Shown here in pieces: positions 44,401 through 50,400 of a DNA stretch of 64,000 bases. Made by a program: the position numbers. This stretch comes from an uncultured Verrucomicrobiae bacterium. GTDB taxonomy: Bacteria; Verrucomicrobiota; Verrucomicrobiia; Limisphaerales; Palsa-1400. The DNA lies in assembly GCA_963707025.1 (NCBI GenBank), contig CAVPOM010000018.1:256001-320000 (forward strand). The letters run 5' to 3'. Position 1 is the first letter of the stretch, and each line of letters opens with the position of its first letter.

Positions 44401-47400
44401 CTGCAATTGCATTCCGGGCCGCTGTCCACTTTGCGCGGCGCCAGCGCCCCCAGCCGCAACGGCCTCTCCCACGCCAACCGGGAGCGTCCGGCCCAGATGG
44501 CCGAACAACTCTTCTGGCGGGTCCTGGAGCATTTGAAAGCACAGACGCCCGGCTTTGCCGCGGGCCAGCGCCGTGGCCCCGCCTTCCGTTTCAAGATGCC
44601 CATCCATGTGATTGATAGCACGACCATGGAACTGGTGGCCAACTGCCTGGACTGGGCCAAGCACCGCCGGCGCAAGGCCGCCGCCAAAACCCATATGCGG
44701 TTGAATCTGCAGAATCTTTTGCCCGGTTTTGTCATTGTGGACACTGCCGCCGAGCACGACAACCGACGGGCGCGGGAACTGTGCGCCGACTTGAAGAGCG
44801 GCGAAATCGCCTTGTTCGACAAGGGTTATGTGGACTTCGGCCACTTGCGGGATTTGGACGGGCGCGGGGTCTTTTGGGTGACGCGGGCCAAGGAGAACAT
44901 GGGCTATGAGGTGGTGCGGAAAATGCCCGCCTCCAGAGACCCGAAGATTTTGCGCGACGAAGTGATCGTCCTGAGCAACGAGAACAAACCCGCGCCGGAG
45001 TTGATGCGCCGGGTGGTGGCGCTGGTCGAGATTGATGGAGAGGAACGGGAAATGACCTTCCTGACCAACAACCTGGAGTGGAGTCCGCGCAGCGTGGCCG
45101 ACCTTTACCGCTGCCGCTGGCAGATCGAAGTCTTCTTCAAACAAATCAAGCAGACCTTGCAGTTGGCGGATTTTCTGGGCCACAACGCCAACGCCATGCG
45201 CTGGCAGGTGTGGACGGCGCTGTTGACCTACGTGCTGTTGCGCTACCTCAGTCACCTCTCCAACTGGGCGCACAGCTTCACCCGGCTGTTCACGATTTTG
45301 CGGGCGGCGCTCTGGGAGAAATATGATCTGCTCAATTTGCTGGCGTGCTATGGGACAGCAGGCGGCAGCTTTCGCCACTTGGCGCCGGCCCGAGCAGGCG
45401 TATTTCCCCGGCTTCCAATAAAGCTATGGGACAGCACACGCGCCCAAACAGGCGCATACCAAACCCAAAAGCCAAACTCGGAAAAATCAAAATCTCATTT
45501 TACCCCGAAGACCAATTAAACCCTTGCAAATGAACAGGTCAGCACCAGACTTTTCCCCTTATGAGACGGGTGTGAAAACAGGTTGTTCGAGTATTACAAT
45601 GACCAATTGAATTCTGACGAAGCGGTGCGGCGACTTACGGTAGTTGTTCGACGCAAATATCTTGCGCTCGCGACCGAGCGGACTTGCTGCGCTTGACTCA
45701 GGCGATATTGCGACTTCCTCAAAGGGCTGCCGTTGCATTTGCCAAGTGAACATAAACTGGAACGGTTTCTGACCGTCCCGGCCAAGAACGATGTCGCCGC
45801 AAGAATCCAACGTCAAGCCTTTAACCAGACGAAACGATAAAACCCTCTGCCGGTCTCGCCATGCGCGACCCTTTAGATAAACTCTCAAAAGAGCCGATCA
45901 ATTTCGGCAGACGTTCCACCCAAAACTCGACGTTGCAAAACAGCTTGGCCGTGAAATCCTCCGACCATAGTTGGCTCTTGCGCAGATATTTCCGCTTCTC
46001 TGGCGGGGTGTTCGCCAAACGGTATCGCCGCATGACCCGCCGCAGTTTCACCGCCTGGCTTGCGGTCACTTCCCGATCCTCTCGATTGCCAAGCGGCAGG
46101 TGTTCCCGGCCAATCACACCCCAATACCGGCCCGGCTTTTGTTCCATCGCCGGCATTTCCTCTTTGTTCGCCATGTAACGCTTGCCCGCATAAGCAAACG
46201 CGCCCTTGATTTTAAACCCATCTGCGGATTTAGCCACAAAGGAACGCAATGAACGCAAAGAAACAGGAGAGGAAAACACCGGGGGCTTGGCGCGCTGTCT
46301 TCATGGTGTCGCGGCTCATGACATATTTCTTAATCTGGAATCACACCCGTCTCATAAGGGGAAAAGTCTGGTGCTGACCTGTTCATTTGCAAGGGTTTAA
46401 TTGGTCTTCGGGGTAAAATGAGATTTTGATTTTTCCGAGTTTGGCTTTTGGGTTTGGTATGCGCCTGTTTGGGCGCGTGTGCTGTCCCATAGCTTTATTG
46501 GAAGCCGGGGAAATACGCCTGCTCGGGCCGCGCCAAGTGGCGAAAGCTGCCGCCTGCTGTCCCATAGCACGCCAGCAAATTGAGCAGATCATATTTCTCC
46601 CAGAGCGCCGCCCGCAAAATCGTGAACAGCCGGGTGAAGCTGTGCGCCCAGTTGGAGAGGTGACTGAGGTAGCGCAACAGCACGTAGGTCAACAGCGCCG
46701 TCCACACCTGCCAGCGCACGGCGTTGGCGTTGTGGCCCAGAAAATCCGCCAACTGCAAGGTCTGCTTGATTTGTTTGAAGAAGACTTCGATCTGCCAGCG
46801 GCAGCGGTAAAGGTCGGCCACGCTGCGCGGACTCCACTCCAGGTTGTTGGTCAGGAAGGTCATTTCCCGTTCCTCTCCATCAATCTCGACCAGCGCCACC
46901 ACCCGGCGCATCAACTCCGGCGCGGGTTTGTTCTCGTTGCTCAGGACGATCACTTCGTCGCGCAAAATCTTCGGGTCTCTGGAGGCGGGCATTTTCCGCA
47001 CCACCTCATAGCCCATGTTCTCCTTGGCCCGCGTCACCCAAAAGACCCCGCGCCCGTCCAAATCCCGCAAGTGGCCGAAGTCCACATAACCCTTGTCGAA
47101 CAAGGCGATTTCGCCGCTCTTCAAGTCGGCGCACAGTTCCCGCGCCCGTCGGTTGTCGTGCTCGGCGGCAGTGTCCACAATGACAAAACCGGGCAAAAGA
47201 TTCTGCAGATTCAACCGCATATGGGTTTTGGCGGCGGCCTTGCGCCGGCGGTGCTTGGCCCAGTCCAGGCAGTTGGCCACCAGTTCCATGGTCGTGCTAT
47301 CAATCACATGGATGGGCATCTTGAAACGGAAGGCGGGGCCACGGCGCTGGCCCGCGGCAAAGCCGGGCGTCTGTGCTTTCAAATGCTCCAGGACCCGCCA

Positions 47401-50400
47401 GAAGAGTTGTTCGGCCATCTGGGCCGGACGCTCCCGGTTGGCGTGGGAGAGGCCGTTGCGGCTGGGGGCGCTGGCGCCGCGCAAAGTGGACAGCGGCCCG
47501 GAATGCAATTGCAGCGAGTCGCACAGATCGTTGAGTCCGATGCAATGGGTGAGTTGCGCGTCCAGCAAACTGACCGTGTGACTCCACGGACTGAAGGTGC
47601 GCGACTTATCCAGAGCCCGGTCTCCCGCGCTATTTTGGAGACTTCATGCGCAGGAATGAGATTGCAAATCTGGCGCAAAACGTTAAACCGGGACCGTGTT
47701 GGTTTGATTTTTTTGTTTTTCATGCCTGCCTTGTGGCAGGTTCAAATGGTCAAGCCAACACTTTTTTCCAATTTCCTGTGGGATGGCTGTGATCTGGAAT
47801 TTGTAGCTGCCGAAGTTGATCAAAAGTCCATCCTCAAGCTTGGAAGACTTGAGATAGCCCAGGATTTGCGCAACATGCTCTTCGGTCGTAGCCCGGCACG
47901 CCTTCAACTCCACGACCAAACAGCCCTCCACCAACAAGTCGGCTAAATAGTCTCCGAGCAAAGTCCCGTCCTCATCGTAAACCTTGAGCGGATGCTGCTG
48001 TTTGACCTCGATGCCAGCCTTGCGCAGCCGATGGACGAGAGCGTTTTCATACACCTTCTCCAAGTGCCCGTGCCCGTGATAGACATGAATCGCGTAAGCT
48101 GTTTTCCTCACCACGTCACAGATCTCATTAATCGTTTTCATCTTTTGTGTTCCTTGTGTTCTTTTGTGGCAGTCTCGTTCAGTTTGGTTTCGTCAGGCGT
48201 GTCTTTTCCAAGGCAGTTCAGCGGCGGCACGGATTCACTTTGAAAATCTGACGCGGACGATATTAGCCGCGCCTGCACCGCTTGCAAATCGAAACCGCCA
48301 GGGGACACCGGCATATGCGCTTTAGACAAGCCCAGCGGAGGCGGGGGGCGGCGCTGGGCGCCACCCCGCCGCCTCTCGCTGTCGCCAGCCTGCCCGCCGT
48401 AGGCCCCGCGAAGGCGGGTTGTCACCACATCCGGCCGCAGAACCGGCGAGCAGTGTAGCTCAGTGCCCGGTTCTGCTCGATTTACCGCGCTGCCGGGAGA
48501 TTCCGGAGTTCCAAACCCATTACAGGTTGCCGCGCTCATCGTCCGTTCCCCCTATCGCCAAAATTGCACCAAGAGCAGGCTTGCAAACAATGTCCCGTAC
48601 TGTATGCTTCCAACATGGCTCTTTCAGTTGAAATGGTCACAGAAGAAGCGATGAATCTGCCGGCAAGCGGACGCGAGTTGCTGGTGGAAAAGCTCCTTGC
48701 CAGTCTGGCAGGCGAGGCAAACCCGACGGTGGAACGCGCCCATTTGGATGATGTTCGGGAGCGCCGCGCCGCTGTCAGCTCTGGCAAGTCGAGGTTTGTT
48801 GAGGGGACAGAAGCAAGCAGGACGGCCCGCGCCGCGGTGCGGACATGAAGCATCGCTTTGTTGAGGAGGCATTGGACGAATTCATTGCGGCTGGCCGGTA
48901 TTACAACCAGCAGGTTCCGGCCTGGGTGACGCCTTTGTTGATGAGGTTGAAGCCGGTATCCGGGCCATTCTCAATGCCCCTCAGGTTTGGCGTGTGGTCA
49001 AAGACGACGTAAGGCGGTATCTCATCCGCCGTTTTCCATACGGCATTTACTACACCATCGAAGAAGACAACGTCGTTATTTGGGCGGTGAAGCACCTGCA
49101 TCGTGACCCGGACTATTGGCAGCACCGCCGCAAGTGAAATTCTCACATCGGCCACACTGGTTATCGGGTGGCGGTCGCGATGACGGCGAGGATGTCTCTT
49201 TCATCGGGGCCTGTCCTTTCCCGCGACTGTGCCAGCAATGGCGAGAATGGCCCGCCGCAACGGTTCGCTCGGTTCCGGCCAAGCCTCGATAACTTTCTGC
49301 AAGTCCGGGCAGGCCGGGGAAATTGGTGCGCTTATCGGTGCGTCAGAATCTGTGTTCCCCAGGCAATCTGCCGTTTTTGGCATTCTCAAACCTGGATTAT
49401 TCCGGGTTGCCGCCGATCACAATGCGCGCGCCGCGCTTATAGGTGAGGTAAGAATAGAACCACTGGAAGAGCACGGCGATTTTGTTGCGAAAACCGACGA
49501 GAAAAATCAAATGAATCACCAGCCACGCCAGCCACGCCACCAAACCGGAAAGATGCAACGAACCCACTTGCGCCACCGCCGCCGAACGCCCGATGGTCGC
49601 CATCGTCCCCTTGTCCCAGTAACGGAAGGGCGGGCGGGCGGCCGCGCCGGGGGAGGCGAGTTCTCCTTCGATGATGCGCGCCACATGCCGCGCCATTTGC
49701 ATGGCCGCGGGCGACACTCCCGGCAGCGGCTTGCCCTCCTCTGTCAAAACCAGGGCCATGTCGCCGATGGCAAAGACTTCGGCATGGCCCGGCACACTCA
49801 AGTCGGGATTCACCTTGACGCGCCCCGCCCGGTCCAGTTCCGCCCCCAGCTTTTTCGTCAGCGGCGAGGCCGCGACACCGGCCGCCCAAATAATATTGGC
49901 CGCTCGAATCGTTTCGCCGCTCTCCAACTCCACCTGGCCGGGGCCCAGGCGCTTGACGGCCGCCTGGAGACGCACCTGCACTCCCAGCCCTTCCAACTGC
50001 CCTTGCGCGCTGGCGGACAAATCCGGCGGCAAATGCCCCAGAATCCTCGGCCCGCCTTCGAGCAAAATGACCCGCGCGCGCGCCGGATCAATGCGCCGGA
50101 AATCCGCCCGCAAAACGTGCCGTGCCAATTCCGCAAAGGCGCCCGCCAATTCCACGCCCGTTGGCCCTCCCCCAACCACCACCATGGTCATCAACCGCGC
50201 CTGTTCTTCCGCCGACGTTTCCGTTTCGGCCCTTTCAAACGCGAGCAAAATCCGGCTGCGAATGCGCAGGGCGTCCTCCAACGTTTTCAAGCCCGGCGCA
50301 TGTTCCTCCCATTCGGGATGCCCGAAATAACTGGTGCATCCCCCCAAGGCCAGCACCAGGTAATCGTAAGACAATTCCCCATTTGCCAGGACGACTTTCT

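Follow-up and report, generated by a model that had tools for sequence, protein, structure and literature searches.

Passages of three papers (PMC3116915, PMC5581495, PMC3733652) describe RAYT/REP/REPIN systems, including REPtrons and TIRtrons, in which repeats flank a nuclease gene. The GxxExxY cassette analyzed here resembles these systems in that a small nuclease gene lies between repeats of its own type, stand-alone inverted doublets form hairpins and are tied to the presence of the gene, several gene-repeat types coexist in a genome, and the repeats are targeted by other elements. The protein has a PD-(D/E)xK fold, whereas RAYT is of the HUH/Y1 type (PF01797), and the arms, unlike REP, are built of tandem units that are not palindromes; they lack a GTAG/CGTC tag and have a TT(A)(A/G)C outer edge. 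Also unlike RAYT/REPIN, the nearest GxxExxY proteins come from different phyla, and the amplified boxes examined lie inside the ends of other elements.

Homing endonucleases include free-standing PD-(D/E)xK types. Like these, GxxExxY is a lone nuclease gene with a patchy presence at a conserved site, where filled, decayed, and empty alleles occur; unlike them, it lies between lineage-specific repeats at many unrelated junctions, with no intron or intein. Boxed genes and gene-less boxes are also carried, like cargo, inside IS630/DDE-type MITE shells, which have terminal repeats and target duplications of their own and enclose the arms; unlike a DDE insertion sequence or MITE, the GxxExxY gene encodes no DDE transposase. 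Some arm edges resemble integron attC cores and many do not, and the arms enclose the gene in 47 loci. Two further papers (PMC5350276, PMC10400941) concern Rpn/YhgA-like PD-(D/E)xK nucleases, which were earlier labelled transposases and tied to RecA-independent transfer and are now described as anti-phage toxin-antitoxin systems. GxxExxY differs from these in belonging to another Pfam family. It has under half the length of Rpn, and we know of no repeat arms for Rpn.

The GxxExxY family PF13366 appears in one published table with the function "Unknown" and many cross-division transfers (PMC3424549), and one published passage names GxxExxY incidentally. Outside subscription journals and supplements, our literature search found no description of repeat-bracketed GxxExxY cassettes. 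The cassette does not pass the tests that define any of the families considered; the data suggest an undescribed kind of selfish DNA, in which a repeat-bracketed gene comes and goes at gene junctions. The explanation we favor, at slightly better than an even chance, is a selfish nuclease cassette of ~470–480 bp with a putative enzyme activity, which would recognize its own arms at the DNA level, move into matching boxes through recombination, and break down over time into boxes that lack the gene.

The boxed gene in the window

The window is a stretch of 64,000 nt (256,001 to 320,000) of contig CAVPOM010000018.1 in assembly GCA_963707025.1, from an uncultured Verrucomicrobiae bacterium, and coordinates are positions in this stretch. 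The GxxExxY gene starts at 48141 on the minus strand (TIGR04256, E = 1.8e-33; PF13366, E = 3e-31), and its 5' part (codons 1–117, 47792..48141) was identified by these matches, conservation, and a structure model. An IS4-family insertion of 1450 bp (46342..47791, minus strand) interrupts the gene and displaces a 3' tail of 34 codons (46230..46332, minus strand), which runs through the downstream arm to the adjacent TAA at 46230–46232; the parts on either side of IS4 sum to 151 codons. A 9-bp target duplication lies on both sides of IS4 (47792..47800 and 46333–46341), and the proposal of the genome-wide survey's note that an IS4 copy cuts the box at its 3' end is confirmed. The genome carries over 40 near-identical copies of this IS4, whose twin matches NF033592; its insertion here is incidental to the cassette.

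The upstream arm (48144..48170, minus strand) consists of three units of 9–10 bp that share a C(A/G)C core, and it ends 2 bases ahead of the start codon, and the downstream arm (46233..46259, plus strand) is inverted relative to it. The two arms are complementary at 23 of 27 bases, and a pattern built from them occurs at these two places only in the window and in none of 100 shuffles, so the gene is indeed boxed here by inverted nonamer triplets, as the note had claimed. The displaced 3' tail may contain a decayed inner arm (p = 0.055 at this locus). An arm identical to the upstream one lies in a gene-less box on one 151-nt contig of a related run, a weak observation.

Without IS4 the cassette measures 479 bp and stands within a decayed, multi-copy HUH-Rep-like element, whose 3' part (45881..46210, minus strand) is 89% identical to intact copies and whose 5' part, with a GC hairpin, lies at 48290..48485 (minus strand). 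An intact copy matches PF23343 with E = 6e-6, just below the curated cut-off. Where the cassette stands, the Rep gene lacks about 200 bp, and nearly the same spot of this Rep-like host holds two different GxxExxY lineages in two congeneric genomes. A general link between GxxExxY and the Rep element was rejected, with only 3 of 172 loci showing it, and a candidate genome thought to share the orthologous chromosomal site (G005) was dropped, the common flank being the multi-copy element itself.

The candidate catalytic residues E28, D68, E78, K80, and Q92 all fall within codons 1–117. E28 and D68 are conserved in 161 of 162 loci, K80 in 158, and Q92 in 155, and the active site, with catalytic roles predicted from the fold, is under strong purifying selection; silent sites are near-saturated among relatives. 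The structure model (pLDDT 95) gave PD-(D/E)xK-type matches, with a best Z of 7.8 and a Z of 5.1 for the I-Bth0305I domain; no match reached E 0.001 in the fold search, and no specific structural relative is claimed. The homodimer prediction score of 0.00 was uninformative and was given no weight. PF13366 was the only strong Pfam match; at E up to 0.1 the Rpn families (PF04754 and PF12784) were not matched, and neither DDE transposases nor the HUH/Y1 family PF01797 gave a match.

Arm layouts and protein lineages

A strict period-9 scan overlooked many arms, including those of the locus in the window, because unit spacing varies from 8 to 10, and it was replaced by a three-unit detector. Arms were found at 138 of 162 relatives and 26 of 1499 control ORFs; the detector still overlooks some arm types, so the counts of loci without arms are upper bounds. 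Arms on both sides occur at 95 of the 162 relatives and at 0 of 1499 control ORFs. In other groups, 29 of 45 loci carry arms, 5 of them repeating earlier loci. An arm is composed of three 8–10-bp units behind the TT(A)(A/G)C edge or, with a two-domain protein, of two 14–15-bp units. By eye, each of the six long-form loci has its own arms, which are doublets at a period of 14–15 bp; the long-form copy (g00380, C3), once counted as contrary evidence, loses that role. The description "boxed by inverted triplets" captures a real layout that is one of several: 47 of the 95 two-sided loci are simple inverted boxes, and in 48 an arm or box is found in repeated form on either side of the gene. A hidden inner arm was significant in 6 of 43 simple boxes only, and their derivation from three-arm forms is not supported. 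In 44 of 80 loci the reading frame extends into the downstream arm, which would account for the odd repeated peptides at the protein ends. Among 17 hand-picked loci, 9 have the gene between long direct repeats of 91–293 bp (85–98% identity), several of which take in the gene's own tail. These repeats speak for the cassette explanation, but local slippage could also yield them.

Comparison of arm types with protein lineages revealed that, among 83 typed loci, the nearest protein has the same arm type in 70 (14% expected), with type patterns drawn from the same genomes, non-independent kin included, after the tree was viewed. The lineage tree came from a quick rather than a careful search. The nearest protein lies in the same genome in 2 of the 83. 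Arm type thus tracks protein lineage and not host; there are nine or more types, and 16 genomes hold two or more, up to five in one. Against the cassette explanation, arm type would follow the gene by linkage alone. The left and right arms of a locus match each other with a score of 23.1, versus 11.7 under permutation and 18.2 when an arm is paired with that of the nearest relative; the own-arm score was higher than that with the relative's arm in 33 loci and lower in 8 (n = 44). At one orthologous site the left-right score was 24.8 versus 19.2, a value that 0 of 5000 permutations reached, and in two loci the left and right arms share an insertion.

Repeat-boxing is not unique to the GxxExxY family. 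In the same genome, genes for four-helix-bundle proteins (TIGR02436) lie among inverted heptamer or GGAC-nonamer arrays, and 5 of 7 have an inverted-repeat score of 22 or more. Like GxxExxY, these are small genes at operon junctions between inverted tandem-unit arms, with another protein family and units of 7 bp or GGAC units of 9 bp. Our search found no paper on four-helix-bundle genes with such arrays.

Occupancy of junctions and movement

Orthologous operon junctions were observed in filled, gene-less, single-arm, and empty states. The gene is present in 16 of 80 metagenome loci at fabD-fabG (by eye) and in 3 of 16 at etfB-etfA, with patchy presence also after radA. Some sites occupied by the gene in relatives have a gene-less box or a lone arm instead, which fits decay. 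In the Rep, etf, and fab series, which are old or carry deletions, no target duplication was seen next to the arms. Horizontal replacement of the gene at a fixed site is at most a possibility: at fabD-fabG, similarity of the gene and of the host is uncorrelated (Mantel r 0.15, p 0.16), but none of four host groupings was rejected by the gene tree (p-AU 0.12–0.35), silent sites being saturated.

The data themselves establish that the arms are lineage-specific, stay alike within a locus, and stand away from the gene mainly in genomes that have the matching gene, and that the cassette is patchily distributed at operon junctions and within other mobile DNA. In the explanation we favor, the small PD-(D/E)xK protein would bind the arm units in DNA and cut the arm hairpin or a place next to it. 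Repair by the host would then copy or integrate the gene, by preference into an existing matching arm or box, which would give rise to the layouts with the gene between repeated arms and would sometimes delete neighboring DNA. Recombination between repeated arms, with ordinary deletions, would take the gene away, and the boxes or lone arms left behind could serve as landing sites. Boxes caught inside IS630-, CC..GG-, or other element ends would be multiplied by the enzymes of those elements and not by GxxExxY.

Several results weigh against this sequence of events. The empty-site test gave one clean case, the only clean recent move, in which the boxed gene moved inside IS630-type ends with a TA duplication, and no arm-to-arm insertion with a duplication at an empty site was found. 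At five stand-alone sites in five congeners there was no clean empty allele with a precise arm-to-arm junction, the sites being either conserved with the closest congener or rearranged. The rarity of nearest proteins within one genome also counts against it, as does the lack of near-identical GxxExxY duplicates in any one genome. Reads from four contig runs of one study showed no joint skipping IS or cassette, with coverage that was mostly IS and so uninformative on excision.

A stronger form, possible but doubtful in our estimation, holds that these are a widespread class of autonomous mobile elements of <500 bp whose sole enzyme is the ~130-residue PD-(D/E)xK nuclease. Each lineage would read its own tandem unit (three 9-mers for a single domain, two 14–15-mers for a double domain), release a gene-plus-arm circle, and integrate in matching gene-less boxes, and a second class, parallel to this one, would comprise the heptamer-armed genes for four-helix-bundle proteins.

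Alternatively, GxxExxY may be a passive passenger, a host-useful repair or defense nuclease whose arms are operators, self-protection sites, or mutation-prone repeats homogenized by template switching, while other elements and host recombination do all the moving. The overlap of the upstream arm with the start region, the purifying selection, the structural neighbors (Cas4, AdnA, and restriction enzymes among them), and the one proven move by IS630 ends speak for this alternative, and quasi-palindrome correction can make arms alike without any protein. We nevertheless regard it as unlikely, since it leaves unexplained the downstream arms, the many lineage-sorted arm types within single genomes, and the patchiness at fabD-fabG, etfB-etfA, and after radA. 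If it holds, the cassettes are merely another form of gene-linked repeats.

Gene-less boxes and stand-alone arms

The genome contains 11 strict gene-less inverted pairs, including those at C7:398990 and C6:319857, so both pairs reported in the note are real; the C6 copy turned out to be part of a ~205-bp family of about 10 copies with its own outer ends beyond the arms (CCG..CGG between CTNAG-like words). Across 41 genomes and three arm types, the median numbers of stand-alone arms with the matching gene present and absent were 31.5 and 0, 5 and 0, and 23 and 0, and the within-genome permutation of the arm-gene match gave 0 of 20000. In one genome (G001, 78% complete), 26, 13, and 30 arms of three types were counted and the GxxExxY gene was not found, which counts against the cassette explanation. 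None of the 10 Y1-transposase loci in this genome carries GxxExxY arms; together with the different fold, the lineage-matched arms, and the stand-alone enrichment, this supports the note's second gene-repeat system apart from RAYT/REP.

This type-specific enrichment, with up to 107 matches in one genome, would also agree with a full analogue of RAYT/REPIN, in which a mostly sedentary GxxExxY excises and re-inserts gene-less boxes in trans as its non-autonomous partners. Long residence at some junctions and the folding of the boxes (z = -10.2 for the C7 box and -7.5 for another, versus z +1.39 and no fold for a single arm) point the same way. Most of the 19 amplified boxes of one genome (G027), however, share CCT..AGG outer ends past the arms, the C6 family ends in CCG..CGG, about half of the 12 boxes with the arm type of the window lie within another common shell, and boxes outside shells are single-copy or shared with the closest congener. 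We consider this analogue quite unlikely, and a spread of gene-less boxes from arm to arm, driven by GxxExxY, is not supported: the aligned families have ends that lie beyond the arms, and the clean move of a boxed gene was on IS630-type ends.

We regard as very improbable an RNA-level element, in which base pairing between the arms of the transcript would form a loop that conceals the gene from the host operon or tags it for processing, and in which the protein may act on RNA. In favor of it, 46 of 71 resolved loci have a co-oriented upstream neighbor, often with an arm at most 25 bases from the stop of that neighbor, and gene-less boxes fold strongly as RNA. Against it, G-U-compatible mismatches show no excess on the coding strand (79 versus 75 in 64 loci, with an opposite lean of 65 versus 92 in short boxes), which suggests a DNA rather than an mRNA stem and disfavors the latter as the main role; the nearest arms in the 48 loci with repeated arms or boxes are unable to loop the gene out, and 42000–50000 of the window has no Rfam match.

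The lineage-specific arms offer a candidate DNA substrate for PF13366, for which own arm versus foreign arm makes a simple test, and they would account for a large class of unannotated intergenic repeats. If the nuclease of the selfish cassette does move it, the cassette would be among the smallest mobile elements known and would offer a naturally occurring collection in which small proteins are matched to short DNA codes; no known insertion sequence uses PD-(D/E)xK chemistry alone. GxxExxY genes occur in several bacterial phyla, and a PF13366 gene is present in 33 of 41 genomes sampled from this order and in 14 of 41 from another phylum. No GxxExxY match was found in 50,697 phage records, and 8 of 72,556 plasmid records contain one.

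The window cassette and the generality of its arms

Analysis of the window revealed a 119-codon ORF, starting at 48141 on the reverse strand, that matches the GxxExxY profiles TIGR04256 and PF13366. An arm consisting of a triple 9-10-bp repeat lies directly upstream of the gene (48144-48170), and its inverted mate forms the downstream arm (46233-46259), with 23 of 27 bases complementary; the arm-pair pattern has no other match in the window and none in 100 shuffles. A 1450-bp IS4 flanked by a 9-bp duplication lies between the arms, confirming the proposal in the genome-wide survey's note that this gene is boxed by inverted triple repeats and interrupted by an IS4. 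More than 40 near-identical copies of this IS4 were found, and another copy (44118-45575) lies inverted to it, ~770 bp away. All four read sets carry one base more than the window sequence at 47615, so the frameshift in the in-gene copy may be an assembly error. The gene parts flanking the IS4 total 151 codons, with the end adjoining the downstream arm, and without the IS4 the cassette measures 479 bp from arm to arm. The candidate catalytic residues all lie ahead of the IS4. The predicted protein structure (pLDDT 95) gave weak, broad matches to PD-(D/E)xK-type folds (best Z 7.8), and its Foldseek matches were Cas4, AdnA, and lambda exonuclease, none reaching E 0.001.

For comparison, 172 loci were collected (the 80 best GTDB matches to the window protein, 90 loci from 32 relatives, and 2 from the window's own genome, G000), of which 162 were scored, with six long-form loci kept apart and four duplicates removed. 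In this set, which is not a random sample since about half belongs to the window protein's own lineage, an arm was present in 138 of 162 loci, arms on both sides in 95, and a forward arm upstream with a reverse arm downstream in 78. Control long ORFs of G000 showed an arm in 26 of 1499 cases and two-sided arms in none; the corresponding values for shuffled flanks were 18 and 0 of 1620. A further 45 loci, drawn from plasmids and other groups and including 5 that repeat earlier ones, had arms in 29 cases and on both sides in 20. Two-sided arms, found by the detector or by eye, occur in named hosts including Bacteroides, Bernardetia, and Sphingomonas. The gene-repeat system is real and widespread. 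The general claim of boxing by inverted triplets holds for 47 of the 95 two-sided loci, where a simple inverted box is formed by the nearest arms; the other 48 have repeated arms, or a whole box, on either side of the gene. The long two-domain copy in G000 (C3:198696-199556) had been named as a possible refutation. Inspection by eye indicated that all six long-form loci (that copy and L183-L187), whose proteins show a tandem domain, have a distinct type of arm: two units that repeat every 14-15 bp, close in total length to the three 9-bp units of the short form. This turns the objection into an extension.

Site histories and arm lineages

The window cassette has taken the place of ~200 bp in an HUH-Rep-like element that exists in multiple copies; remnants lie at 45881-46210 and 48290-48485, and an intact copy at L207:1444-2535 (reverse strand). 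This element is ~1.2 kb long, with an HUH-Rep-like protein (weak PF23343 match) as its sole product, and carries a 5'-terminal GC hairpin. Among congener copies, some are intact and others are occupied at almost the same position by another GxxExxY lineage; further ones contain two boxes enclosing a truncated gene, one box alone, or a stub. Decayed copies are numerous in the genus, often with repeat boxes inside. Residence is similarly patchy at the etfB-etfA junction (ETF domains), where 16 genomes comprise 3 filled sites, 4 lone forward arms, 1 stub, 1 lone reverse arm, 1 other repeat, and 6 armless sites. At fabD-fabG, inspection of 80 metagenome loci by eye revealed 16 cassettes, four remnants, and one gene-less box matching a box-plus-gene neighbour, the remaining loci being empty, occupied by other hairpins or genes, or cut short. 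At the Rep-like, etfB-etfA, and fabD-fabG sites, which are old or carry deletions, arm edges showed no target duplication. GxxExxY genes may replace one another at fabD-fabG: gene similarity did not correlate with FabD similarity, but the gene tree rejected no host grouping. Duplication and deletion are frequent at the arms. Of 11 loci boxed on both sides, 4 have near-identical spacers, and direct repeats of 91-293 bp, several taking in the gene's own tail, occur in 9 of 17 hand-picked loci. Both integration of a circle at a matching remnant and local duplication would fit these patterns.

The arms are lineage-specific and change jointly. Arm types group by clade on a quick GxxExxY protein tree, and in 70 of 83 typed loci (of 132; types drawn up after the tree had been inspected) the arm type is shared with the most similar protein (expected, 14%). 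That protein is in the same genome in only 2 of 83, and 16 genomes hold two to five arm types. Linkage alone predicts part of this agreement. Same-locus arms are more alike than nearest-relative swaps (33 higher, 8 lower, n=44); two loci at a single orthologous site have an identical insertion in both of their arms. E28, D68, K80, and Q92 are conserved in 155-161 of the 162 proteins, with silent sites near saturation.

Gene-less arms and the carriers of boxes

Stand-alone copies match the resident gene in type. When three arm types were counted across 41 genomes, minus three arms per matching gene, the medians with and without a matching gene were 31.5 versus 0, 5 versus 0, and 23 versus 0, using patterns derived from the same genomes, whose kin are not independent. 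Within-genome label shuffling (18 informative genomes) reached the observed contrast in 0 of 20000 trials. Seven of eight genomes without a detected gene have at most 4 matches of any arm type; G001 (78% complete) clearly departs from this pattern, with no gene found yet more matches. A gene-less, roughly inverted pair of heptamer arrays lies at window 10037-10123.

The spread of boxes is partly due to other elements, inside which they hitch-hike. A 668-bp unit occurs at unrelated sites of two genomes with 98% identity, and its empty alleles reveal a TA duplication at outer IS630-type ends, indicating that it did not move arm to arm. G000 contains an IS630-family (DDE_3) element of ~1010 bp in many copies (40 end matches; L313), with ends similar to those of the shell around a boxed GxxExxY gene that was carried in genomes G014 and G019. 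The family of C6:319857 is MITE-like, ~205 bp long, with ~10 copies including G000 C6:319835-320031. Its CCG..CGG outer ends are bordered by CTNAG-like words, and copies often coincide with stop codons; these ends also carry REP-like hairpins. In genome G027 (L545-L563), most of 19 boxes are CGCGAA-type within a ~165-bp CCT..AGG shell. Of 12 window-type boxes, about half have a shell in common, itself inserted in other-type arms. A non-coding shell (L573-L580, L289-L291, and G000 copies) has unlike ends, ACCACAA versus a GCGGC hairpin ending GCCGCGCTG, inserts inside nonamer arms with no visible duplication, and carries other-type boxes; its enzyme is, we would guess, IS110- or IS91-like.

Mechanism and known systems

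We consider somewhat better than even the chances of a model in which the GxxExxY protein would bind arm units in DNA and cut nearby, repair would insert the gene at arms or boxes of matching type, and cassette decay would leave boxes behind. That the gene serves the host and travels as a passive passenger appears unlikely. A full REPIN analogue is also improbable: the main counter-evidence to taking the boxes for plain REPIN equivalents is the move of the 668-bp unit through IS630-type ends and the outer shells of the amplified box families, together with the lack of a clean empty allele at five stand-alone sites compared in congeners. An RNA-level element is more doubtful still, since arm mismatches show no G-U bias on the coding strand (79 versus 75), which makes pairing or conversion of the arms in DNA more likely than an mRNA stem.

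Patchy alleles are a pattern that GxxExxY cassettes have in common with homing endonucleases. The system is outside each known family tested. RAYT/REPIN (PMC3116915, PMC5581495, and PMC3733652) has the most similar mode of working and differs in both enzyme and repeat structure. Rpn also differs, and PMC3424549 gives the function of PF13366 as 'Unknown'. No account of a gene-repeat link for GxxExxY was found in the literature searched (subscription papers and supplements lay outside its scope), and the system is apparently undescribed so far.

A parallel design was observed in the four-helix-bundle genes of G000 (L041-L047), suggesting that small genes bracketed by repeats may form a wider class. 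Five of seven TIGR02436 matches lie between inverted arrays (score at least 22) of tandem heptamers or GGAC-nonamers, units unlike the GxxExxY arms, several at operon junctions. Elsewhere in the window, region 42661-44131 holds a GIY-YIG-like gene, an unknown ORF and, between them near 43488-43545, what we take to resemble an attC site, and an addiction-module antitoxin (PF09720) is followed by a ParE-family gene (PF05016) at 48576-49138, its frame split in this assembly.
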